Shown piece by piece: positions 1-50,803 of a DNA stretch of 64,000 nucleotides; position 1 is the first letter of the stretch, and each line of letters opens with the position of its first letter. Under the pieces are notes generated by a model. It worked only from the letters and a program-made list of their open reading frames with translations, did no database searches and was not told where the DNA came from. The stretch lies in the sequence record PQ327946.1, one strand, 5' to 3'. Source of the DNA: a phage. The position numbers and the translations under genes were made by a program.

Positions 1-152
1 AACCCGGCATTCAGTGCACCACCTAATGCAATATTCAACATCGGAATACGAGTAGGGACTTCATCACGATTATTAAACAGCTTAGACTTAGTCAAGTCTG
101 CAGTCATTTTAGAAGTAGAAGCTTTAATCAGACGAGATTTTAAATCAGACAT
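1..152 (-). CDS. uvsX: UvsX RecA-like recombinase, N-terminal ~50 codons; gene continues past window start
   Basis: ATG at 152..150; translation MSDLKSRLIKASTSKMTADLTKSKLF... matches the T4 UvsX N-terminus as I recall it; synteny with gene 42. Confidence 0.8.
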   Translation of the reverse strand, partial: MSDLKSRLIKASTSKMTADLTKSKLFNNRDEVPTRIPMLNIALGGALNAG

Positions 153-205
153 TGTATTTTTCCATAGGCATCATTATATTTTACTCATGTTTAAAAGATA
201 AGACG

Positions 206-233
206 ATTATATACTAAGGGTTATACAGCATTT
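206..233 (-). promoter_or_regulatory. Candidate MotA-type middle promoter upstream of uvsX
   Basis: Minus strand reads AAATGCTGTA, 12 nt, TATAAT, resembling a MotA box plus -10. Confidence 0.3.
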
Positions 234-252
234 AAAAACTTTAAACAGGCTC

Positions 253-801
253 TTAACGAGCCCATTTGATAATTTCTGTAATCAAATTATTACGTTCGCT
301 TGCATTAAATCCTATAACTTTGTTAGCACCATCATGATTAAGTAATTGATACGTTTGGATTTCGTTATGAATTGCAAACTCTTCAAAATATGAAATGACT
401 GTATTAAAACCGAATGAAGACAAAGTAATAAGGTCGTCTTCAAAACTTTCAGTCATTTCGTTACGTGTTAAAATAATTGTGAACACATCATGGTTTTGGC
501 AAAGACGAACATAATCCTGTTCATAAACGTCAAGAACCGAGTCCGCATCTTGTCGAATACGTCCATAAACCCAGTTACTAATATATCCACGGTCTAACAG
601 ATAAATCTTAGTAGGGTCTAAATAATTCAACATCGTTTCGAAACAGCCAACTTCATTTCGAGACTTAACATCGAAACGTCCATCAACTGTTCGTTTAAGG
701 AAATCAATCTTTACATATCTTTCACTAATTTCCATTATGTCATTAATGAAAGTTGTTTTACCAGCATTATCCGGGCCATCTACTAAAATAATTTTAGCCA
801 T
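253..801 (-). CDS. P-loop NTPase, small kinase-like protein
   Basis: 182 aa ORF; Walker A GPDNAGKTT near N-terminus; ATG at 801..799. Confidence 0.55.
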   Translation of the reverse strand: MAKIILVDGPDNAGKTTFINDIMEISERYVKIDFLKRTVDGRFDVKSRNEVGCFETMLNYLDPTKIYLLDRGYISNWVYGRIRQDADSVLDVYEQDYVRLCQNHDVFTIILTRNEMTESFEDDLITLSSFGFNTVISYFEEFAIHNEIQTYQLLNHDGANKVIGFNASERNNLITEIIKWAR

Positions 802-802
802 T

Positions 803-1702
803 TTATTCCTCGATTACGACATCTTCATATTTAGGTATATTATACGGTGAAGAAATTAAAGCGTTAAAGTAGATGAACTCACCAAGACCTGGATGGAATA
901 CTTCTTCAGGATTTTCGAAATATTGAATCTTCGGACGTCCTTTAAGAATTTGATAGTACTCAGTTTTAGTTGGATTAAAAATTCGAATCAGCGCTTCTTC
1001 AGGATACTTATTTCTGTCGAAACTATTATTTGGATCAGTTATATAAAGCGGTTGACCTAATTGAATTGCGCATTCAACCACTTGTTCAAAACGATAGCAC
1101 GGGTCACTAATTCGAAATGGATGAAAAATACCATCTAGATGAATAGGAGCCAAATCACCTACAAGACGCTGCATGATGGAAGGACGTATAACTTTCTGCG
1201 TTACGATAATCTTATTACCATCCGCACCAGCGTTAACCAGCACTTCCTTTTGACGTTCATTCAACACAGTAGTTTGAAGTGAACGATTAACCGACAACAT
1301 GTCGGTTTTTAAGAATTCGTCAATATAAAAACGCGGTTTATTAGGGTCTGCGGTGATATTGAAATTGAATTCTACATCAAAAGCACCATCATATCCAGTG
1401 ATATCTGTTATTAGAAAATCACAATCATAATAAGCAATTAATGAATCAACCACAAATTCATTTTCAGACCAGAAATATTTACGAGTGTTATACGCGTTAT
1501 CTTTATACCATAATGGAACAAACTTAAATTCTGGGAAAAGACGTTCACATTCTTTAATATCAGATGCATTACGTGGATATGTAATCACATCACCTGGATT
1601 AGCACGGTGCAAATGAAGTTGGAAGTTGCCATCCTTAAGGATAGCATACTGTCCAGTTTCATAAGACCGCATACTCAAGATAGGTACGCGGAAAATAGCC
1701 AT
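803..1702 (-). CDS. Hypothetical protein in the syntenic slot of T4 beta-glucosyltransferase; candidate novel DNA-modifying transferase
   Basis: 299 aa ORF between uvsX and gene 42; no resemblance to T4 beta-gt as I recall it. Confidence 0.5.
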   Translation of the reverse strand: MAIFRVPILSMRSYETGQYAILKDGNFQLHLHRANPGDVITYPRNASDIKECERLFPEFKFVPLWYKDNAYNTRKYFWSENEFVVDSLIAYYDCDFLITDITGYDGAFDVEFNFNITADPNKPRFYIDEFLKTDMLSVNRSLQTTVLNERQKEVLVNAGADGNKIIVTQKVIRPSIMQRLVGDLAPIHLDGIFHPFRISDPCYRFEQVVECAIQLGQPLYITDPNNSFDRNKYPEEALIRIFNPTKTEYYQILKGRPKIQYFENPEEVFHPGLGEFIYFNALISSPYNIPKYEDVVIEE

Positions 1703-2418
1703 TAGTCAAGGAATCCTTTAACATAATCAAAATCACGTTCAAACACATGGGCACTTACCATGGTATGAGTATAATCACCAACTTCTACACCACATTCGTT
1801 AGCGATATAATGAAGTAATTTTCCTTGGAGATAAAAATCCAACTGCATAACAACAGCACAGTTCTGAGAACGCATATGGCAGTGGGTATAAAGCTTACCA
1901 TCACGAATATAATAAGTCACCGAGTCAGTACATGGATATTCAAGCGTTTCGTCCGAATCAAGCAAAGCCTGATCAGAACTTTCTAGAATTTGGAACACAA
2001 CTCTTCGGGAGTTAGGCTTCTCTTTAAGTTCTTTTAGAAGAGCTGGTAATTGGGCCGCAATGCGAGGACCATAGAAAGTGTTGAAGTTCGCCGGCAAAAC
2101 ATCTGATTTTGGTTTAGAAATAAATTTAGCGACATTAGGATATGCCTTAAACGCTTCTTCTGCGTCAGTACCACCAGAAATCATAAACTTCCAGAAGTCT
2201 TCGGCATATTCATAAGAGATGCGGTTAATACGTGGGTCGGTCATTTTGAATGATGATGGAGTGTCAACAACTACTGTCATAGACCCAATTTCATTACAAC
2301 GTCCAATACGAGAATCAGTTACGAATTCCGGGTTTTCTAAAATTTCACGATTGACTGCTTTAAATGCGGTTTGAAAATCTGCGGCTTTGATATATTTCAT
2401 TGTGTTATGTTTTCCCAT
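1702..2418 (-). CDS. 42: dCMP hydroxymethylase (thymidylate synthase family)
   Basis: 238 aa; ThyA-family motifs YPCTDS and MRSQN; position upstream of gene 43 as in T4. Confidence 0.75.
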   Translation of the reverse strand: MGKHNTMKYIKAADFQTAFKAVNREILENPEFVTDSRIGRCNEIGSMTVVVDTPSSFKMTDPRINRISYEYAEDFWKFMISGGTDAEEAFKAYPNVAKFISKPKSDVLPANFNTFYGPRIAAQLPALLKELKEKPNSRRVVFQILESSDQALLDSDETLEYPCTDSVTYYIRDGKLYTHCHMRSQNCAVVMQLDFYLQGKLLHYIANECGVEVGDYTHTMVSAHVFERDFDYVKGFLD

Positions 2419-2696
2419 GTTTACCTCAATACAATTTATTATATACTCAATTCGTAAAGCTTATTTGAATTTCTTGACAATGTTGATATAACGTAAAGCT
2501 TCAGCATCGATACTTCCAAGAACACTATGAAGAAATGCATCAGCGTAGTATTCCAATTAAACAGGTTCTTTAATCACTTTAGCCGCTTTAGTTTCAAACA
2601 GGCCCATCAGGGCCTTTTTAAGAATTTGTTCGATGCTGTTAATTTTCATAGTCAAAATCTCTTCGTTAAGTTGGTGGTTAAAAGTTTTTCTAGAAA

Positions 2697-3857
2697 TCAT
2701 TCTGGGTACCTCAAAGCGTCGTCAGAGTTAGTTATATCAATAATAGATATAGAATTTTCTGATAACCCATTTTTAGATAACTGACGTTTATAATATCTTT
2801 CACAATATGTACACGTCGTCCCGCAGATTTCATTAGCACAATCGAAATCTGGATGTTTGAACCACCTTTTTTCTAAAAAGCCATCTAACAAAGAGGTTTC
2901 AATATTTACCGTATGTGAAAACTCGGTCTCATTTTCAAGAGTGAAAATGGTCTCTAAAGGCTTCCACAATTCCAACAAATTACCTTCAAATTTTTCGGAA
3001 GCATAAGCTTCAAGAACTTTCAAAATGTAGTCTGTGCTACCTGTACGTCCTGAAACTTTGAATTGAGTGATACCAATATCATTATAAAGTTTCAAATCTT
3101 GAGGACGAACAAAACGAGTTCTCAACCAGTTAAATGGGTCTGTATCACGAGCTTTAATACAGTGCTGCATTGGATACCCATTTAAGGATTTGGCATCATC
3201 TACTGTAACATCGGTGCTATGGAAAATATAGCAAGAGTCACGATAACTACAATGTGTTGTATACCCTTTACCAGCATTAGAACAGAACTCATTTACAAGA
3301 ACTTCAAATATTATATTGTTCTTATTACAAAACTCTGCTGCACGCTTCAGGAAAGAAACTGAACGGTTCTTATGAATTCCGCAGCAGACCTTTTTGATAT
3401 TATATTGGTCATGCAAGTATTTGATTTGAGTTACAGCATCGACATGTAGAATTGTTGAAACTTCAATCTCAATGTCTTTATTGACTTCACGAACAATTTC
3501 CATAACAACAGGGTTAGCGATAGTAATACGCCATACGCCTATTGACCAAAGATACTGAACATAATCCTGAATAGCTTTCTTCTTCCACTCAACTAGTTCT
3601 CTTTTTGAACCAGGATTTATCGTGTTGAGTGTATAGTTAAAGCAAATACCTAATTCGTTACAACGTTTAACGTAGTCTTCTAACATCTTTTTGTCAACGT
3701 CAGGAAGCCTAAAATCAGGTCTGGCTGCTACAAAAGCCATTTCTCTTGTAGAGCCATATACTTCGTTTATCAAGCTATTAGGATAGGTTTTATTGAGCTC
3801 TACGATTTTATCAAGAAGAGCTAAATCAAAATTCGTTCCGATTTTAAAAGTATTCAT
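2697..3857 (-). CDS. U32-like TIM-barrel protein with C-terminal cysteine cluster
   Basis: 386 aa; N-terminal pattern resembles U32 family; C-terminal CANEICGTTCTYC cysteine cluster. Confidence 0.45.
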   Translation of the reverse strand: MNTFKIGTNFDLALLDKIVELNKTYPNSLINEVYGSTREMAFVAARPDFRLPDVDKKMLEDYVKRCNELGICFNYTLNTINPGSKRELVEWKKKAIQDYVQYLWSIGVWRITIANPVVMEIVREVNKDIEIEVSTILHVDAVTQIKYLHDQYNIKKVCCGIHKNRSVSFLKRAAEFCNKNNIIFEVLVNEFCSNAGKGYTTHCSYRDSCYIFHSTDVTVDDAKSLNGYPMQHCIKARDTDPFNWLRTRFVRPQDLKLYNDIGITQFKVSGRTGSTDYILKVLEAYASEKFEGNLLELWKPLETIFTLENETEFSHTVNIETSLLDGFLEKRWFKHPDFDCANEICGTTCTYCERYYKRQLSKNGLSENSISIIDITNSDDALRYPE

Positions 3858-3914
3858 TTTTTTTGCATCCCACGTTAATTGATGCGATGGTTTTTGCAGG
3901 TCTTACTTAAATTA

Positions 3915-4316
3915 TTATAGATTCGGTTTATATGATTTAAATGTTTCGAATTCGCCTTTATTCATAAGAGCTTTGAATTCGTCAGGACGCATAGCTTTGT
4001 CGTCGATAATCCAATCATATACTGGTTTATGTGTTAGCAAATTATGGTACTTCAATCCAATGTTTGCCAAGTTCTGAATCAGACTTGGGAGAATGTCAAT
4101 TGCTATACGACCAGGACCGACTGACTTCATACCGCGAGCAGTGTAAAGCGTTATGGTATGCCCTGCATCATACAGGGCATTAATGGCAGATACCATTTCG
4201 ACGTCTGGTTTGAAGTTCACGTAATCACGATTGTTATTCCACTCTGTTATACAATCATCGACATCAAAACAAAGATTAAGCATGTTTTCTACACGGTGCA
4301 TTAGATTCGTTCCCAT
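3915..4316 (-). CDS. HAD-superfamily phosphatase-like protein (start uncertain)
   Basis: 133 aa ORF; FDVDDCIT fits HAD motif I (DxD); alternative ATG starts at 4301 or 4283. Confidence 0.5.
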   Translation of the reverse strand: MGTNLMHRVENMLNLCFDVDDCITEWNNNRDYVNFKPDVEMVSAINALYDAGHTITLYTARGMKSVGPGRIAIDILPSLIQNLANIGLKYHNLLTHKPVYDWIIDDKAMRPDEFKALMNKGEFETFKSYKPNL

Positions 4317-5986
4317 TGATGAGTGATATCGCCACCGATTGGACGATAAGAAACACCAGTTTCTTTATCAGTTAGTACCCATTTACCAGGATTTTTTGTA
4401 ATCAGAGTAGCCGTTACAGGTTCTGCTACATCATAACTAATAGTGCCGTCCTGAAGTACACGGCCCATGTTACGTAATTGCTTAGTCAGAAGTTCCATAC
4501 CTTTATAATATGCGGCTACCGCTTTAAGTGGATTATTCTTGAAATAACCACCTAATGCAATCCAGATAATTGCTACAGCCAAATGATGATACTCATTAAA
4601 CGAACTCATCTTTCCATATTTGTAAACTAATGGATTGATGTTAATAGTCACATTACAAGTTGTTTCATCAATAGTAAACTGACCCCAGGTCGGATTAGCG
4701 TTGAATTCATCATAACCTGAAACAGCATAAAGCACTTTAGCTTCATCATACAATTTTGGCCCATAAATCTTGGTTTCACCAAAATATCCACGAGGGTCGA
4801 TAAACTTGACTTCACCATTATCAGTAATCATAGTATTACTGAAGTTCGGGTCACCATGAATAACAGAGTACTGTCCCTGAGAACGGTTATGATAACGAAT
4901 AAGGTGTTCTAAAGCTTGTTTCAGCATTGGCTTCAGACGCCCAATCTTAGTGTAGTTCACATGTGTGATTTTACCAAATGAATCAATCAATGGTTGAATA
5001 CTTTCACAACGATCAATAACTTTCGTATAGAATTCTTTAGTGAAATCACGACGAACAGTTTCAGGACTTACAAAATAAGTGTCTGTGCTGAATTTCAGTG
5101 CGTCTAAAATTGCATCAACAATTTGTGGACGAGCAAGACTCGATTTGGATTTAATATATTCAAATGCTGGCTTACCTTTAATGCGTTCCATTTCAAAGTT
5201 ATTTTCATTAACAGAAACTAACTGAGGAACTGAATCTGATTTCACTTTAAGATACCATGAAATCTCATCTTTCTGAAGAGCTCGTCCCTGTTCGGTTAAT
5301 GCGAATTTAGTTACAGTTTCTTCACCAATTTCAACTGCATTAAAACTACGATTAAGTTCACGAACTTCATGAGCTTTTTCAAGTTTAGGCATATCACCTA
5401 AATCAATTAGATTCATAAGCTCTGATTTATTGAATGCGCTGCCGTAAAGGAATTCTACGAAATCACGTCCTTTGCAGTATTCATGAATTTCCTCATCAGT
5501 AGAACCCATATAGAATTCCCAGTCTTTGAACTGATAAATTCCTACAACATTACCACCTGTTGAACCTACGTTAGTGATATTTTCGCCGTCGAAATTATAT
5601 CGACATTCGTCACCCTTAACATAGATTGCGTTAACATTCCAAGACCATGAACCAAAATCAGGAATAATATCACACCAGTTAACAATTACATTATGACCGT
5701 CTAAATCTTTGTGTAATTTAGCAAGAGCATAAGCAGAACCGTACGCTTCATCAACTGTACGAATAGTCACATTGAACCCTTCTTGCTCACAATAAACTCG
5801 AACAGTTTCAGCAAATTTTGAATGAACTACTACAATAATTTCATCTGCGCCAAGGTCAGAATAAATTGTATACAAATTGCTCAGAATAGTGTCTTGTTTA
5901 TAGTTAACAAGCACCTTAGGAATATGATGCGTTATTGGATACAAACGAGTTGCCAGTCCAGCACCAAGAATAACAGCTTTTTTCAT
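4301..5986 (-). CDS. Bifunctional sugar-1-phosphate nucleotidyltransferase / APH-fold sugar kinase
   Basis: 561 aa; N-terminal ILGAGLATRL nucleotidyltransferase signature; C-terminal HGDPNFSN ... DPRG kinase motifs. Confidence 0.6.
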   Translation of the reverse strand: MKKAVILGAGLATRLYPITHHIPKVLVNYKQDTILSNLYTIYSDLGADEIIVVVHSKFAETVRVYCEQEGFNVTIRTVDEAYGSAYALAKLHKDLDGHNVIVNWCDIIPDFGSWSWNVNAIYVKGDECRYNFDGENITNVGSTGGNVVGIYQFKDWEFYMGSTDEEIHEYCKGRDFVEFLYGSAFNKSELMNLIDLGDMPKLEKAHEVRELNRSFNAVEIGEETVTKFALTEQGRALQKDEISWYLKVKSDSVPQLVSVNENNFEMERIKGKPAFEYIKSKSSLARPQIVDAILDALKFSTDTYFVSPETVRRDFTKEFYTKVIDRCESIQPLIDSFGKITHVNYTKIGRLKPMLKQALEHLIRYHNRSQGQYSVIHGDPNFSNTMITDNGEVKFIDPRGYFGETKIYGPKLYDEAKVLYAVSGYDEFNANPTWGQFTIDETTCNVTININPLVYKYGKMSSFNEYHHLAVAIIWIALGGYFKNNPLKAVAAYYKGMELLTKQLRNMGRVLQDGTISYDVAEPVTATLITKNPGKWVLTDKETGVSYRPIGGDITHQWERI

Positions 5987-6167
5987 GTTGTGGTCCTCAT
6001 TGGTAAGTAGGAGTATTGTACACTATTCTAGTTAAAGCATTCATACTTTGCTTGTAGTCCAATCATAATCCATCCGATTATAAGAGTCGGAATCATTACT
6101 GGAGCCGTTAAGCTCCAGTAGATAGTCATGACAAGCATCAATAGTAAAAGTCCTATTGTTATTGCTT

Positions 6168-6803
6168 TCATTGTTCGCCTCGTAACATGGCACCTAGTGC
6201 ACCGCCAGGGTGGAACTTAAGGAAGTCATTAGAGGTAAATCCACGTTCAGACGAAAGGTTGATAGCAAACGTATCGATAAGCGCTAACAACAATGTAGTG
6301 GACATAGTCGGAGCCAGAGAATTCTCATCAACCTCTACTGCGATGCCTGTACAGAACGTATAATCAAAAAGAGCTTCGTATTCTTGTGGAATGTCTGGGT
6401 TACAATGCAACAGAATCTGTTTGACGTTCGGACGAATCATTTTAAGATGCTTAGCCACGCCTATCATTTCTTCAGTTTTACCAGAACGACTAATATGAAT
6501 CAACACATCATTAGGCGCAATGAATCCTGCATCACCGTGAGAATAATGCCCGGTGTTCAAGTACATACTCGGGATACCGAGTGAAGCAAATGTCTCAGAA
6601 GCTTTAGTTGCGATATTAGCGTTCTTACCAACACCTGTAATAATTACACGACTTTCATAATTACTAAGTCCTGGGCGTCGAAGAGTTTCTAGAATAGCAT
6701 TATAACGAGCAGGGTTTTGACTAATTACTTTGGCCATAGCGGCCAAAGAAGAAGCTTGTTTTATGATTGCGTCAATAGCGATAGTAATAGGAGTAGTTTT
6801 CAT
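6168..6803 (-). CDS. SIS-domain sugar-phosphate isomerase
   Basis: 211 aa; ITGVGKNANIA ... HISRSGKTEE pattern typical of SIS domains. Confidence 0.6.
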   Translation of the reverse strand: MKTTPITIAIDAIIKQASSLAAMAKVISQNPARYNAILETLRRPGLSNYESRVIITGVGKNANIATKASETFASLGIPSMYLNTGHYSHGDAGFIAPNDVLIHISRSGKTEEMIGVAKHLKMIRPNVKQILLHCNPDIPQEYEALFDYTFCTGIAVEVDENSLAPTMSTTLLLALIDTFAINLSSERGFTSNDFLKFHPGGALGAMLRGEQ

Positions 6804-6843
6804 ATTTCTCTCATTTAATTAGTTTACCGTCCATGGCATTATA

Positions 6844-9555
6844 TCAAAAATCGAACATATCGAACAGAGATGCTTTCTTCTCGTAATCGAGTTTCGCTGC
6901 TGATGTGAATCCTTCAAGTGGTTTAATAAATGTCTTCTCAAGGAGAACAGTGTAGTCCATCCAATGAAGTACGTCGTCTTTAATTAAATCTGTGATTTCA
7001 GTACCAGAAGGCCATGCGATACATTTATCACCGAATGGGTTTCCTTCACGTAAAGGCAGAACATATACTTTTTCACCTTCTACAACTTGCGGTGCATCGA
7101 TATTACCTTTGATAGCACGGTTATACGTCAGAATTCCACGAATATGGAATGGGCATTTGGGACCAGGGAATCCACCTACATCATATTTAGCAATGTTATT
7201 CGCAGAAGATACCGACGCGATGCTAATATAATTCAATTGACGGAATTCTTTTTCAAACTCTTTAAAATATTCTTGTAATGATTCTTCACCTTCTTGAAGC
7301 ATACGACGAATACATTCTTTAAGAGCTTTCTGTACTGCTTTAGGAGTCGAAGATTTCTGAGTCTCTAGACCCATGATTTTGAGTTTAGGCTCAGCATAAC
7401 GAGTACCTTCCATATCCCACACGTTTAATGCATAACGTTTCTTACCAGTCCAGAATCCACCAATACCTTTAGAACCGAGTGGAGGCCCGGCGATAGCTTC
7501 TCGGTCCATGAACATTAAGTGTTGTTTATTGTTCATGTATTCACACATTTCACGGAAACCTCTATCAATAGCTGGTTCCATACGTTCACGTGCAAACTTA
7601 TCTAAGAAGTCTACCCAATGGTTGGTATCACGGAATTTAGATTCACCAACCTTATCGATAATTTTATCAGCAGATACGTAAATAGAGTCTGTATCACCAT
7701 AAAGAACGAAAGCTTCACCTTCTGTACCACAAACTTCATTCAGATATTCATTAACTTTACGTTCAATCCACTGTAAAGCCATTTGACCAAATGTTGTGAT
7801 TGCAGTAGCATTACGCAAATCGTAATAACGGAACCAAACGTTTCCAAGTGCACCATAAAGCGAGTTGATGAGCAATTTACGGTTAATCTGTGCAGTCATA
7901 CCTGCAACTTCAGTACGTTGAGCTCTAAACAACATTTCATTAAGAGATTTAGCAGACAACTTTTTAATCTTTTCTTTAATCTCATCACTGAAGTCGAAAC
8001 GATAATCAACATCTAATGGTTCGTCAACAGAAAGATTAGGATTATGCAATGCCTCTTTAATTATTTCACCATTACGTTGAGCCGCAAGCATATAACCTTT
8101 ATGTTCTTTACGTTGATTAAAGACTTTAGTGATTTCAGTTGGAACAACACCGTCACGGTCTTTATAATACATCATGCCGTTAGGAGAACAACTGTACACA
8201 TCAGAAGGACGTTCAGCAACAGCGTTAATATAATCATGCAATGGAGCTACTTTAAACGTTCCTGCTATTGTTTCCGGGCTAATATTCACTTGGCGAATAA
8301 TACTTGGATACAGAGATGTAAGGTCGAAACTCATTACATATTTGTATCGATTTGGAATAGGTTCCTTAACAAAAGCGCCGGGATAAGGTTGAACCGGGTG
8401 AGAACGACCTTGTGGAATCACCTTGTTCTGCTCTTTAAGGCTATTAAAAATAATAGCATCCCATGTTTTAATTGGGCTAAACACGGATTGAATCTGTATC
8501 TTAGCATAATAACCCATGTCCAAACTCAAGTTGATGAACTGACGCTTAGCATCAATTTGCAATACACGATACACGTCGATAATGTTATAAGAAATATATC
8601 GTTGGTGATTGCTTTCACGAAGCTTAGAAATAGGGCCGTCATATTTCAGTTTACCAACGTTCAATTCAAATTCTGAAATGTAATCCAGAGAATACGACGG
8701 TTGATTGGTAAAAGAGAATTTTTTGTAAAGGTCAATGTAATCAAGAACAGAGATACCGAATAATGTAATGATTTCACGAGAACCATACATGTTTTCGATA
8801 ACTTTAACACGAGTTTTACGATGTGGTGATAAACGTTTCGCAGTAGATTCGCCAAAAATATTCTTGATTCGGTTATACACATATGGAATATCAAATGACT
8901 CAACGTTCCATCCAGTCAAAATGACAGGAGTTTTCTGTTGCCAGAAATTGAGATATTCCATCAATAATTCTTTTTCGTTATCGAACGGCATATAAATGAT
9001 TTTATCGATAATTTCGGATGGAACTTCATCACCACCTTGTTCTTGAAGCTTAGCCGCAATTTCGATAGACCATTCTTCTACATTACCATATGGAGAATTC
9101 AATAGATCAAATACGTAGAACCTGTCGTCAATTGAGTCATAATGGGTGATAGCATCAATCGGATGTTTTGCTTGTGACGGCTCAGGGAACCCATCCGGAG
9201 ATGTTACTTCGATGTCGAAGTTAGCCACACGAATTTTTGTATGATCGTATTTGATTTCATAGTTATAAGTGTCAGACAAATACGCCAATTTGAAATCGTC
9301 CATGCCAAGTGCTTCAAGACCGATATCTTCCATGCGTTTAATCCATTGGGAGGCATCACGCATATTGGCGAACAACTTACGAGTACACGGCTTACCGTAG
9401 ATATCGAAATATTTCGTAGCCTGACTTTCCGGACAATGAGCAAACAGTGATGGTTTATATTCTACTTCACGAGTACGTTCACGGCCATTAGAATCGATGT
9501 AACGTTCAAAAATTGAATCACCAATCTGTTCAACCGTTAAGTAAAATTCTTTCAT
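6844..9555 (-). CDS. 43: DNA polymerase (family B)
   Basis: 903 aa; exonuclease and polymerase motifs (FDIE, YGDTDS); N-terminus matches RB69-type gp43 as I recall it. Confidence 0.97.
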   Translation of the reverse strand: MKEFYLTVEQIGDSIFERYIDSNGRERTREVEYKPSLFAHCPESQATKYFDIYGKPCTRKLFANMRDASQWIKRMEDIGLEALGMDDFKLAYLSDTYNYEIKYDHTKIRVANFDIEVTSPDGFPEPSQAKHPIDAITHYDSIDDRFYVFDLLNSPYGNVEEWSIEIAAKLQEQGGDEVPSEIIDKIIYMPFDNEKELLMEYLNFWQQKTPVILTGWNVESFDIPYVYNRIKNIFGESTAKRLSPHRKTRVKVIENMYGSREIITLFGISVLDYIDLYKKFSFTNQPSYSLDYISEFELNVGKLKYDGPISKLRESNHQRYISYNIIDVYRVLQIDAKRQFINLSLDMGYYAKIQIQSVFSPIKTWDAIIFNSLKEQNKVIPQGRSHPVQPYPGAFVKEPIPNRYKYVMSFDLTSLYPSIIRQVNISPETIAGTFKVAPLHDYINAVAERPSDVYSCSPNGMMYYKDRDGVVPTEITKVFNQRKEHKGYMLAAQRNGEIIKEALHNPNLSVDEPLDVDYRFDFSDEIKEKIKKLSAKSLNEMLFRAQRTEVAGMTAQINRKLLINSLYGALGNVWFRYYDLRNATAITTFGQMALQWIERKVNEYLNEVCGTEGEAFVLYGDTDSIYVSADKIIDKVGESKFRDTNHWVDFLDKFARERMEPAIDRGFREMCEYMNNKQHLMFMDREAIAGPPLGSKGIGGFWTGKKRYALNVWDMEGTRYAEPKLKIMGLETQKSSTPKAVQKALKECIRRMLQEGEESLQEYFKEFEKEFRQLNYISIASVSSANNIAKYDVGGFPGPKCPFHIRGILTYNRAIKGNIDAPQVVEGEKVYVLPLREGNPFGDKCIAWPSGTEITDLIKDDVLHWMDYTVLLEKTFIKPLEGFTSAAKLDYEKKASLFDMFDF

Positions 9556-21732: not shown

Positions 21733-22203
21733 TTAATCATGTTTCCACACCCCATCGGTATTTGACCAAAGTCGCTGATTATCTGATCCTCGCCACATCT
21801 TTTTAGTCGGAAGATTTTTCTCATACTTCCCATCAATAATAACATCAACATATTTAAGCATTTCTAGTTGTTTAATATCTTCAAACTTATATCCTGTCCA
21901 CAACCAAATGCTTTTATTGGGATAAAGATTTTTTACTGTTTGAGCAATGCGATGAATAACATCTCGGTTATCAGGATAGAGAGGATCTCCTCCGGTTATA
22001 GTTAATCCTTCTATATAATCATTATTCAAACATTCAATCAATTGTTCTAGTGTTTCACCAGTGAATGGAATACCATTTCTAGCGTTCCATGTTGATTTAT
22101 TATAACACCCTTCGCATTTATGCAAACAACCTGTAACGAAAAGAACGACCCTGCAACCAGGGCCATTCACAAAATCGCAAGGATAAAATCTATCATAATT
22201 CAT
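21733..22203 (-). CDS. nrdG: Anaerobic ribonucleotide reductase activating protein (radical SAM)
   Basis: 156 aa; CxxxCxxC motif GCLHKCEGC. Confidence 0.9.
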   Translation of the reverse strand: MNYDRFYPCDFVNGPGCRVVLFVTGCLHKCEGCYNKSTWNARNGIPFTGETLEQLIECLNNDYIEGLTITGGDPLYPDNRDVIHRIAQTVKNLYPNKSIWLWTGYKFEDIKQLEMLKYVDVIIDGKYEKNLPTKKMWRGSDNQRLWSNTDGVWKHD

Positions 22204-24017
22204 TGGTGTTTAACCCTATGCATGATTTCTTTATTTTTACCGAGATTAAATCCGCGTTCGTTCGGATTTCCCAAATAACCACATGTTCTTCTTATGGTGT
22301 TCATCTTTTTAGGATCACTTTCTCCACAAACTGAACAAACAAATCCGTTTTCAGTAGGAGTCATTTCATGAGTACTTCCACATGTAAAACATTTATCTAC
22401 TGGCATATTAACACCAAAATAATCTAAATGTTGTGCAGCATAATCCCAGACAGCCTCAAGACCTTTTAAGTTATTTTTCATATCTGGAAGTTCAACATAA
22501 GAAATGTGACCGCCTGTTGCAATGAAATGATATGGGGCTTCGCGAGAAATCTTTTCAAATGGAGTAATATTTTCTTCTACTGAAACGTGGAAACTGTTAG
22601 TGTACCAGCCTTTATCGGTAACATCTTTTACACTTCCATATTTCTCAGTATCAAGTTTACAGAAGCGATAGCACAGGTTTTCAGCAGGAGTAGAATACAG
22701 GCTAAAAGCAAAACCGGTTCTTTCAGTCCACTGCTTAAGACGAGCATTCATTTTAGTTAAAATTTCCTGTCCAATATCACGTCCGACAAGAATATTCAAT
22801 TCGTGAATACCAATGTATCCTAGGGACACTGAACTTCTGCCGTTTTTAAATAACTCAATTATATCGTCATCAGGTTTAAGACGAACCCCGAATGCACCTT
22901 CTTGGTAAAGAATAGGAGCAACAGTAGCTTTAACTCCTTTTAAGGAACTAATTCTGCACATCAATGCTTCAAAACATAAATCCATTCGTTCATTGAATAA
23001 TTCAACAAATTTCTGTTCATTGAACTGTGTTCCAATATAAGAATCTAACGCAATACGAGGAAGATTCAGTGTTACAACACCAAGATTATTACGTCCATCA
23101 AGAATTTCATTACCAGTCGAATCTTTCCATACGCTCAAGAAACTACGACAGCCCATTGGAGAAACAGGAACAGATGAACCAGTGATAGCTTTATTATTCT
23201 TAACTGAAATAATATCAGGATACATTCTTTTGCTTGCACACTCTAGAGCAAGCTGCTTAATATCATAATTCGGATCGTCTTTATAAAGATTAACACCTTC
23301 TTCAACGAACATAACAAGTTTAGGGAAAATAGGAGTTATCCCATCGCGACCAAGACCTTTAATACGATTTTTCAGAATTGCTTTCTGAATCATTCGTTCA
23401 GTCCAGTCAGTTCCAGTACCAAATGTAATTGTCACAAAAGGCGTTTGTCCGTTTGAACTAAAGAGAGTATTTACTTCATATTCATAAGCTTGGAATGCAT
23501 CGTATACGTCTTTTTCTGTTTTAGATTGGGCATAATTCAGCGCATCAGCGATTTGCCATTTTTCTGCATCTTCAATATGTTTTGCGTAGGTGCGTTTAAC
23601 ATAAGGAGAAAGGACTTTATCTACATTCGCAAATGTAGTTCCACCGTATTGATGGGAAGCAACCTGCGCAGTAATTTGTGCCATAATTGCAGTAGCAACA
23701 CCAATCGATTTAGGCGTTTCAATTTGAGCATTGCCTAATTTAAATCCATTCTCAAGCATCCCCTTTAAATCGACTAAACAGCAATTAGTAAATGGAAGAG
23801 CAGGAGAATAATCAATATCATGCATGTGGATAATTCCACTTTCGTGTGCTTTCATAATAAAAGACGGGACCATATTTTTGGCAATGTGCTTAGACACAAT
23901 ACCAGCCATAAGGTCCCGTTGAGTTGGAAAAACACGAGAATCTTTATTAGCATTCTCGTTCAAAAGATCTTTATTAGTTTTATGAATTAATCCTTCAATT
24001 TCTTTTTCAATTTTCAT
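22200..24017 (-). CDS. nrdD: Anaerobic ribonucleoside-triphosphate reductase
   Basis: 605 aa; C-terminal zinc-ribbon cysteines and glycyl radical motif RTCGYLG; uninterrupted. Confidence 0.93.
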   Translation of the reverse strand: MKIEKEIEGLIHKTNKDLLNENANKDSRVFPTQRDLMAGIVSKHIAKNMVPSFIMKAHESGIIHMHDIDYSPALPFTNCCLVDLKGMLENGFKLGNAQIETPKSIGVATAIMAQITAQVASHQYGGTTFANVDKVLSPYVKRTYAKHIEDAEKWQIADALNYAQSKTEKDVYDAFQAYEYEVNTLFSSNGQTPFVTITFGTGTDWTERMIQKAILKNRIKGLGRDGITPIFPKLVMFVEEGVNLYKDDPNYDIKQLALECASKRMYPDIISVKNNKAITGSSVPVSPMGCRSFLSVWKDSTGNEILDGRNNLGVVTLNLPRIALDSYIGTQFNEQKFVELFNERMDLCFEALMCRISSLKGVKATVAPILYQEGAFGVRLKPDDDIIELFKNGRSSVSLGYIGIHELNILVGRDIGQEILTKMNARLKQWTERTGFAFSLYSTPAENLCYRFCKLDTEKYGSVKDVTDKGWYTNSFHVSVEENITPFEKISREAPYHFIATGGHISYVELPDMKNNLKGLEAVWDYAAQHLDYFGVNMPVDKCFTCGSTHEMTPTENGFVCSVCGESDPKKMNTIRRTCGYLGNPNERGFNLGKNKEIMHRVKHQ

Positions 24018-49971: not shown

Positions 49972-50024
49972 TATGCCTTGCGGCAACCTTGTCGGGGTTC
50001 CACCTGCTAAGGCAAGTGTTTGTA

Positions 50025-50048
50025 CGAAACGCCGGGATTCGAACCCGG
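50025..50048 (-). other. tRNA-like T-arm/acceptor remnant
   Basis: Minus strand CCGGG-TTCGAAT-CCCGG; no convincing D or anticodon arm found by hand. Confidence 0.3.
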
Positions 50049-50283
50049 TTATTAAGCAGTTGACACTACTCAATATTTTTAAAAGGCCATATCTCGACCA
50101 TATCCGAACGTTCCGTCAAAAACGCTACTCGGCTTACGGCAAAGATATTTCCTCGAATCGATAATTCTGTGCGCCGTTTCTGCTGTGATGTAAGGGGATA
50201 TTAACGAATCATAAAGATTTATTAAGACCAGTCCTTACACAGGGAACATCAGTCCGACGACTTGCCGGTAGCGACCCGGCTTC

Positions 50284-50646: not shown

Positions 50647-50723
<77 letters not shown>

Positions 50724-50729
50724 AATATA

Positions 50730-50803
50730 TGACCCAGACCAGATTCGAACTGGTAACCTTTCCCTTATGAGGGGACTGCTGCTAACCATTGAGCTACAGG
50801 GCC
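50730..50803 (-). tRNA. tRNA with anticodon CAU (Met or lysidine-Ile), non-canonical D arm
   Basis: Acceptor GGCCCTG/CTGGGTC, T arm ACCAG-TTCGAAT-CTGGT, loop CTCATAA; 6 nt downstream of tRNA-Arg. Confidence 0.6.

Follow-up and report, generated by a model that had tools for sequence, protein, structure and literature searches.

Among the U32-family enzymes described so far, Escherichia coli RlhA (YdcP) forms 5-hydroxycytidine at C2501 of 23S rRNA, a reaction that requires C169, C176, two C-terminal cysteines, iron-sulphur (Fe-S) cluster assembly and prephenate (PMC5727448). In the TrhP/TrhO and UbiU-UbiV/UbiI-H-F systems, two enzymes serve one and the same hydroxylation, one that requires O2 and a U32 enzyme that works without O2 and depends on prephenate (PMC6599085, PMC10990095). 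Prephenate was shown to be the oxygen donor of the anaerobic hydroxylations that depend on UbiU and UbiV, and the same role has been proposed for U32 proteins generally (PMC10990095). Here we describe a U32-family gene found at positions 2697-3857, on the minus strand, of a 64,000-nucleotide stretch of phage DNA (sequence record PQ327946.1, the whole of which is called the window), where it lies within a DNA-modification cluster. Taken together, our observations favour a second route, independent of O2, to the hydroxylation that another enzyme of this cluster performs with O2.

The window derives from a Mosigvirus, a T-even phage resembling RB69, its bases 1-7000 being 98.7% identical to Escherichia phage S143_2 and ~98% identical to many relatives. 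RB69 DNA contains arabinosylated 5-hydroxycytosine, and not hydroxymethylcytosine, as its only modified base (Lee et al., NAR 2026, PMC13326640). All cytosines are replaced by a pre-replicative pathway that proceeds via 5-hydroxy-dCMP and a dNMP kinase; the RB69 protein gp48 makes 5-hydroxy-dCMP, binds flavin and takes the oxygen atom from O2, and a phage dCTPase, RB69p028, was predicted from structure by the same authors (PMC13326640). The Acinetobacter phage DLP3, which has no U32 gene, still makes tri-arabinosylated 5-hydroxycytosine (PMC13326640).

The RB69 ortholog of the U32 gene, RB69p050, appears in Lee et al. only as the table entry "Sugar or heterocycle reductase", without experiment or discussion, and that paper nowhere uses the terms U32, Fe-S, hydroxylase or RlhA (PMC13326640). 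Another paper labels the cluster "isomerase, epimerase, sugar kinase, NTP-transferase", and databases annotate the protein and its homologs as "peptidase" or "collagenase-like protease". Lee et al. mention the HY126 Afh proteins solely in connection with functions that match other cluster genes, from which we infer that the U32 gene has probably been assigned no function in the literature. Neither a phage U32 protein nor a phage chorismate mutase was tied to 5-hydroxycytosine in the literature searched, with He et al. 2026 and Mahler et al. 2025 lying outside its coverage.

Family membership, fold and predicted metal sites

The U32 open reading frame (ORF) begins with ATG and encodes 386 amino acids, 99.2% identical to RB69p050. 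The protein matched Pfam PF01136 (Peptidase_U32) with E=6.3e-11 and 42.4 bits, well above the gathering score of 22.4, over residues 94-286 (positions 3000-3578), which form part of the TIM-barrel core, and it matched PHROG 5757 "peptidase" with E=2e-266. An AlphaFold2 model built with 30 homologs was confident, with a predicted local distance difference test (pLDDT) score of 91.3 and a predicted template modelling score (pTM) of 0.90. Foldseek returned as the top PDB match Mk0906 (5d88), a U32 protein of Methanopyrus kandleri (E=1.6e-7, target-normalised template modelling score 0.73), the remaining matches being generic TIM barrels; the same top match was given by Lee et al. (PMC13326640). 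Mk0906 differs from the phage protein in that it shares 11% identity, comprises 247 amino acids, lacks the C-terminal cysteine domain and has no assigned function. When PDB chains were searched with the family profile, the sole match was yeast Bim1, which was judged spurious.

The ratio of nonsynonymous to synonymous substitution rates (dN/dS) against RB69 was 0.028, indicating strong purifying selection. Between genera synonymous sites are saturated, whereas the proportion of nonsynonymous differences (pN) is just 0.11-0.16, so that the gene can be taken as real and constrained. Only the last ten residues (377-386; positions 2700-2729) form a variable tail, with pLDDT below 50, that is missing in most distant homologs.

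Conserved residues delineate two predicted four-ligand metal sites rather than one. Site 1 (residues 190-233; positions 3159-3290) comprises E190-F191-C192, C203-x5-C209 and C233, while site 2 is the C-terminal cluster C340-x4-C345-x3-C349-x2-C352 (positions 2802-2840). The site 2 quartet is invariant among the 30 homologs and present in 112-114 of 119 representatives of the wider subfamily. For site 1, C203 and C233 occur in all 119 representatives and C192 in 118, while 72 have Cys and 46 have His at position 209, an alternation that fits a metal ligand. K267 and R271, in the segment F266-K267-V-S-G270-R271 (positions 3045-3062), were found in 119 of 119, and C158 and C177 do not belong to the core. 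The C-terminal 92 amino acids alone gave no Pfam match. From this pattern the phage protein would have two metal sites, probably of the Fe-S type.

The four E. coli paralogs were compared with the phage family by profile-sequence alignment with hhalign. RlhA was the clear best match (probability 84.6%, E=6.8e-6, 204 columns), TrhP and UbiU matched weakly and UbiV was undetected. In the alignment the phage E190-F191 pairs with RlhA E161-F162, and C203-x5-C209 with C169-x6-C176, the phage protein bearing a 5-residue insertion; the phage FKVSGR segment is aligned to RlhA FKIEGR. The two proteins thus share a U32-motif site, in which the essential cysteines are aligned, and an arrangement of further C-terminal cysteines, essential in RlhA. 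However, RlhA is 653 amino acids long and acts on rRNA in pre-50S particles, whereas the phage protein has 386 residues, resides in a DNA-modification cluster and displays both the motif insertion (C192-x10-C203-x5-C209) and its own C-terminal cluster, Cx4Cx3Cx2C. They are not orthologs, and on sequence criteria the phage proteins form a separate subfamily, orthologous to none of the named ones. The subfamily comprises 459 clusters at 50% identity at E<=1e-30; at the looser threshold of E<=0.001, a set of 1.84 billion proteins yielded 1,661 cluster representatives.

An earlier reading of the window, made from the sequence only, had announced the 386-residue ORF exactly where it lies, with U32 homology and a C-terminal cysteine cluster, and had named RNA pyrimidine C5 hydroxylases and anaerobic quinone hydroxylases as relevant family members. 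The Pfam and PHROG matches and the fold of Mk0906 bear out the homology, the C-terminal cluster is real, and the lead proved to be the right one, RlhA being the best paralog and C203/C209 aligning with its essential C169/C176. What that reading overlooked is the second conserved site, C192/C203/C209/C233, in the U32 motif region.

Linkage to prephenate supply and to DNA glycosyltransferases

In T4-like phages of the eight non-Mosigvirus lineages sampled, the U32 gene is followed by a gene for a type II chorismate mutase, the enzyme that produces prephenate, often with a 4-nt overlap at the U32 stop codon. Across phages of Enterobacter, Erwinia, Edwardsiella, Klebsiella, Yersinia, Shewanella, Morganella and Proteus, the CM_2 scores were 34.7-46.8 bits (Pfam gathering score 27), and six of the eight catalytic residues of the E. 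coli enzyme are invariant in the phage proteins (R11, R28, K39, E52, S84, Q88). The gene occurs in 51 phage records, always within the modification cluster, and in 13 of the 15 T4-like loci on viral contigs. In Shewanella phage Thanatos-1 the cluster has been rearranged, yet U32 and chorismate mutase remain paired. Conversely, the cluster-bearing phages that lack U32, namely Dhakavirus VR5, Acinetobacter phage AB-Navy71 and Pseudomonas phage PspYZU05, also lack chorismate mutase.

Unrelated phages, whose U32 proteins are just 40-55% identical, repeat this linkage. In six contigs, 194-294 kb long, U32 is succeeded by chorismate mutase, Aat1-like and AfhE-like genes in that order, with U32 proteins 46-50% identical and chorismate mutases reaching CM_2 scores of 53.6 and 54.9 bits. 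On five viral contigs of uncultured phages (L051, L052, L054, L055 and L065) U32 adjoins a 3-deoxy-D-arabino-heptulosonate 7-phosphate (DAHP) synthase to whose C-terminus a chorismate mutase domain is fused. These fusions scored 131-164 bits as DAHP synthase against 50-56 as 3-deoxy-D-manno-octulosonate 8-phosphate (KDO8P) synthase, and the four that were scanned for CM_2 gave 38.7-86 bits. In two loci (L004, L040) a DAHP synthase alone adjoins U32. The linkage of U32 to prephenate supply therefore recurs in three independent gene architectures, and the DAHP synthase-chorismate mutase genes look like a shikimate-pathway auxiliary metabolic module. A first reading of the DAHP_synth_1 neighbours as KDO8P synthases, suggested by an adjacent SIS gene, was discarded on the basis of the scores (131-237 bits for DAHP versus 50-67 for KDO8P) and of the several chorismate mutase fusions.

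In the window, the slot held by chorismate mutase in the sister genera is occupied by a small ORF of 79 codons (positions 2461-2700, minus strand), homologous to RB69p049, which shares a 4-nt overlap with the U32 stop and is interrupted by an in-frame TAA (2557-2559) at a codon that reads CAA in RB69. Phage vB_EcoM_JQD51 is 100% identical across this slot, which diverges more rapidly than the U32 gene beside it and belongs to no detectable family. We considered whether this ORF might be a diverged chorismate mutase and rejected the idea, given that neither the window ORF nor the intact RB69p049 matched CM_2 and that hhalign returned a probability of 0.1% against the phage chorismate mutases. 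The slot also varies among the Marfaviruses, as Klebsiella phage P545 (L012) carries U32, chorismate mutase and a thymidylate synthase (TS) homolog in that sequence, while in Klebsiella phage Marfa (L027) U32 is followed directly by the TS homolog.

A second linkage emerged from 39 distant loci, 7 from the protein database and 32 from viral contigs, each inspected with flanks of ~10 kb. A homolog of Aat1, the putative first DNA arabinosyltransferase (RB69 gp46:47; positions 803-1702 of the window, minus strand), was found at <=5 kb from U32 in 26 of the 39 loci, directly adjacent in 8 and separated only by chorismate mutase in 6 more. The homology of these neighbours to Aat1 extends over their full length in direct BLASTP (E=5e-14 and 2e-17) and agrees with single-sequence phmmer; these pairwise results rule out profile drift in jackhmmer as the source of the match between the families labelled unk334/326 and Aat1. 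Other recurrent neighbours of U32 were SIS, AfhE-like, MazG, DCD/dUTPase, dCMP deaminase, thymidylate kinase, replicative polymerase and UDP-galactopyranose mutase. Only one of the 39 loci had a homolog of the TS-type hydroxylase within ~10 kb of U32. The distant phages are thus equipped to glycosylate a hydroxylated pyrimidine except for the known hydroxylase, which makes the U32 protein a candidate for the hydroxylation step; in these loci it would hold the place of the hydroxyl-generating enzyme.

U32 also occurs in two conserved cassettes of different composition. In two large phage contigs (L001, L020), a dCMP deaminase, U32 and a protein of ~250 amino acids lie beside DNA polymerase III alpha, uracil-DNA glycosylase, thymidylate kinase and MazG; the dCMP deaminase unit hints that the substrate in some phages may be uracil, rather than cytosine, nucleotides. 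The other cassette, found in anaerobe genomes (L002/L003; L074, Bacillota; L077, BRC1; L078, Tannerella; L079, Phocaeicola faecalis), consists of a GP88-family protein, a 414-amino-acid methyltransferase, a 265-amino-acid protein and, last, U32. The genes that come next in L002 and L074 encode NT5C, a PnuC-like transporter, a deoxynucleoside kinase, a radical S-adenosylmethionine (SAM)-SPASM protein, a second, very divergent U32 (22% identity) and a nucleoside deoxyribosyltransferase, and L002 additionally carries a tRNA-synt_2c-family protein between the deoxynucleoside kinase and the radical SAM gene.

The modification cluster, oxygen and phage hosts

The neighbour that performs the O2-dependent reaction lies one small ORF away from U32. 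The TS homolog at positions 1702-2418, on the minus strand, is 99.6% identical to RB69 gp48 and is therefore the O2- and flavin-dependent 5-hydroxy-dCMP synthase (PMC13326640), not the dCMP hydroxymethylase that the sequence-only reading had placed there. Like its counterparts DLP3 gp80 and the HY126 homolog, gp48 belongs to the same kind of cluster and makes the product that we propose for U32, but it has the thymidylate synthase superfamily fold, unrelated to that of U32, binds flavin and draws its oxygen from O2. The same reading had envisaged for U32 an additional modification or sugar-tailoring step. This is not the best reading, since DLP3 attains the tri-arabinosylated base without a U32 gene; the evidence as a whole favours another, O2-independent route to the same hydroxylation over a further step.

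The remaining genes of the cluster, all on the minus strand and assigned by homology, encode a P-loop nucleotide kinase-like protein (RB69p045; 253-801), a haloacid dehalogenase (HAD)-type phosphatase (RB69p051, an AfhF analog; 3915-4316), a bifunctional nucleotidyltransferase/kinase (RB69p052:53, an AfhE analog; 4301-5986) and a SIS-domain arabinose-5-phosphate isomerase (RB69p055; 6168-6803), followed by the neighbouring DNA polymerase (6844-9555). The ORFs at 803-1702 (299 amino acids) and 4301-5986 (561 amino acids) are single and intact here, while the RB69 reference splits both (p046/p047 and p052/p053), in agreement with the published view of these splits as sequencing errors. Upstream of the U32 start, a promoter-like site, TTTAAA-16-TATAAT (3914-3941, minus strand), is a consensus match only, as a scan of the region gave 16 such sites against 18.5 expected from shuffled sequence and hence no enrichment.

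The distribution of U32 among phage hosts is in line with oxygen use. The gene was present in 222 records of isolated phages, whose hosts, as far as seen, were genera of the Enterobacterales and, outside that order, Shewanella; these are facultative anaerobes. The TS-type hydroxylase is carried by 374 phage records, including 57 from Acinetobacter and 20 from Rhizobium, and none of these 77 records contains U32; phages of strict aerobes lack the gene. A search of 100,044 species, represented by one genome each, yielded eight U32 loci, every one from an anaerobic lineage: Erysipelotrichales, Lachnospiraceae, two Romboutsia, a Bacillota metagenome-assembled genome (MAG), Tannerella, Phocaeicola faecalis and a groundwater BRC1 MAG. 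Three of the eight repeat the order U32, chorismate mutase, Aat1-like.

The window phage is itself equipped for DNA synthesis in anoxia, as it encodes the anaerobic ribonucleotide reductase, nrdG (21733-22203) and nrdD (22200-24017), both on the minus strand and identical to RB69 at 153 of 156 and 596 of 605 residues respectively. With these genes there is a precedent, among T-even phages, for pairing an aerobic enzyme with an anaerobic one. RB69 is also annotated with a GrcA-like glycyl-radical cofactor (vs.6).

Proposed function and competing explanations

We propose that under anoxia the U32 protein generates the 5-hydroxycytosine acceptor as a hydroxylase that depends on prephenate and not on O2, a proposal to which we give an even chance. 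Gene context, the host-oxygen pattern and the likeness to RlhA, TrhP, UbiU and UbiV make prephenate use, a cytosine substrate and an anaerobic role the most likely interpretation. With O2 available, gp48 would hydroxylate dCMP; without it, the U32 enzyme would hydroxylate C5 of cytosine, most likely on dCMP, yielding 5-hydroxy-dCMP. The metal clusters would assist the oxidation of C5, and prephenate would supply the hydroxyl with release of phenylpyruvate and CO2, as proposed for UbiU/V (PMC10990095). Kinases and the polymerase would then incorporate the 5-hydroxy nucleotide, and Aat1 would add arabinose to the 5-hydroxyl acceptor. The predicted dCTPase RB69p028, if active, would deplete dCTP, so that cytosine would have to re-enter DNA as a modified nucleotide; as gp48 needs O2, an anoxic infection would then be left without a cytosine nucleotide unless a second route existed. 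The pairing of gp48 (O2/flavin) with U32 would thus parallel the dual pathways of TrhP/TrhO and UbiU-UbiV/UbiI-H-F, although the U32 members of those pairs are only weakly similar to the phage protein and act on tRNA uridine and a ubiquinone precursor.

A wider proposition, to which we give slightly less than even weight, is that the widespread, hitherto unassigned phage U32 subfamily represents the first nucleobase hydroxylase that works without O2 on behalf of DNA and not RNA, taking its oxygen from prephenate and serving as a backup to 5-hydroxy-dCMP synthase in phages of Enterobacterales and as the sole hydroxylase in many phages of strict anaerobes. The hydroxylase hypothesis for the window gene is specific, was not found in the literature searched and draws on several independent comparative lines.

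Several observations weigh against the proposed hydroxylase. Just two cysteines of the canonical four-Cys set of prephenate-dependent U32 hydroxylases align with the phage protein, and among the NCBIfam equivalog models of the named U32 subfamilies the sole match was UbiU, at 19.4 bits against a cutoff of 440. The U32 substrates described so far are RNA polymers and a quinone precursor, with no mononucleotide among them, and in vitro reconstitution has never been achieved for any U32 enzyme (PMC10990095). No recognisable chorismate mutase was found in the window phage or in other Mosigviruses, where prephenate would have to come from the host PheA/TyrA, nor at the locus of phage Marfa. Dhakavirus VR5 infects E. 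coli and has the same cluster with no U32, hence U32 is not universally required in cluster-bearing coliphages. The scarcity of TS homologs in the distant loci holds for flanks of ~10 kb, SIS and AfhE-like sugar-activation genes constantly accompany U32, which would also fit a role in a sugar pathway, and the host-oxygen pattern is confounded by phylogeny.

Among the competing explanations, the least unlikely is that U32 hydroxylates cytosine, or another pyrimidine, after replication, in DNA, feeding the DNA glycosyltransferases directly. All characterised U32 enzymes of nucleic acids act on polymers (PMC10990095, PMC5727448), and U32 often adjoins or overlaps genes for Aat1-like and TET-associated glycosyltransferases, which act on DNA and of which the TET-associated ones usually partner DNA-level oxidases. 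In phage TET/JBP dioxygenase modules, base oxidation yields a hydroxyl that the adjacent glycosyltransferase decorates, and in one distant locus (L021) U32 overlaps a TET-associated glycosyltransferase gene; TET enzymes, however, need O2, Fe(II) and 2-oxoglutarate and use 5-methylcytosine in DNA, whereas U32 is unrelated to them and presumably O2-independent. Modification of the polymer is unlikely in view of the complete, pre-replicative replacement of cytosine in RB69 and of the nucleotide-pool genes that surround distant U32 genes (dCMP deaminase, MazG, DCD and thymidylate kinase).

A sugar-tailoring TIM-barrel enzyme (a reductase, epimerase or similar) of the nucleotide-sugar branch would account for the position of U32 between the HAD phosphatase and the base-modification genes, for the co-occurrence of SIS and AfhE-like genes in many distant loci, for the lower-ranked Foldseek matches, which are sugar-phosphate isomerase/epimerase TIM barrels, and for the published labels "Sugar or heterocycle reductase" (PMC13326640) and "epimerase" (another paper). 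Yet AfhE and AfhF of phage HY126 have reportedly been demonstrated to turn arabinose-5-phosphate into UDP-arabinofuranose, the full route proposed from ribulose-5-phosphate does not involve the U32 protein, and DLP3 completes the tri-arabinosyl base without one. Such a role would also leave unexplained the linkage to chorismate mutase and DAHP synthase and the two conserved metal sites, and we regard it as quite unlikely.

Alternatively, prephenate or the metal clusters could serve a chemistry other than hydroxylation, either radical or based on the transfer of a prephenate-derived group, as in 5-carboxymethylcytosine formation through CmoA and carboxy-SAM. The conserved CxxxCxYC motif (C345-x3-C349-x2-C352, with Tyr before the last Cys) resembles that of radical SAM enzymes, radical SAM-SPASM genes lie near U32 in several distant loci, and phage DNA carboxymethylation needs prephenate through CmoA (PMC12783734). 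We consider this improbable, as neither the whole protein nor its C-terminal 92 residues matched Pfam Radical_SAM, the motif occurs only at the C-terminus, four cysteines are conserved there where radical SAM sites use three, the cluster contains no CmoA-like gene and the arabinosylated base is the only modified one in RB69 DNA.

A role as an RNA hydroxylase of the RlhA or TrhP kind, modifying tRNA or rRNA of the host or the phage and tuning translation during infection, would agree with RlhA being the closest E. coli paralog and with the tRNAs encoded by T4-like phages. The standard tRNAs of the window phage are tRNA-Arg(UCU), at 50647-50723, followed by tRNA-Met(CAU), at 50730-50803, which we take not to be of the 5-hydroxyuridine (ho5U) or 5-carboxymethoxyuridine (cmo5U) type. 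ARAGORN also reported a 95-nt "tRNA-???" with a four-base anticodon (ttta) at 50022-50116 on the minus strand, ~0.5 kb from tRNA-Arg(UCU). Since U32 lies inside the DNA-modification cluster in 28 of 28 T4-like loci, by DNA glycosyltransferase and nucleotide-pool genes, and the phage protein lacks the long C-terminal region of RlhA (386 versus 653 residues), an RNA substrate is very improbable. A genuine peptidase of the collagenase-like PrtC type is hardly credible, as it draws on the annotation labels, the primary literature questions the proteolytic role of U32 and ties its characterised members to hydroxylation (PMC10990095, PMC5727448), and the eight conserved metal ligands, the chorismate mutase linkage and the DNA-modification context would go unexplained.

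If the proposed hydroxylase function is correct, it would explain how phages whose cytosine modification begins with an O2-requiring hydroxylase replicate in the anoxic gut, and DNA precursors would join RNA and quinones as targets of prephenate-dependent U32 hydroxylation. The phage chorismate mutases and the DAHP synthase-chorismate mutase fusions would be auxiliary metabolic genes feeding U32, which would give those genes a function. If the substrate is a small soluble nucleotide, the phage enzyme may make it possible to reconstitute a U32 hydroxylase in vitro for the first time. Glycosylated 5-hydroxypyrimidine DNA would be common in anoxic viromes, with a large hidden set of anaerobe phages carrying modified DNA, and this would bear on restriction and CRISPR evasion, sequencing biases and gut phage therapy.

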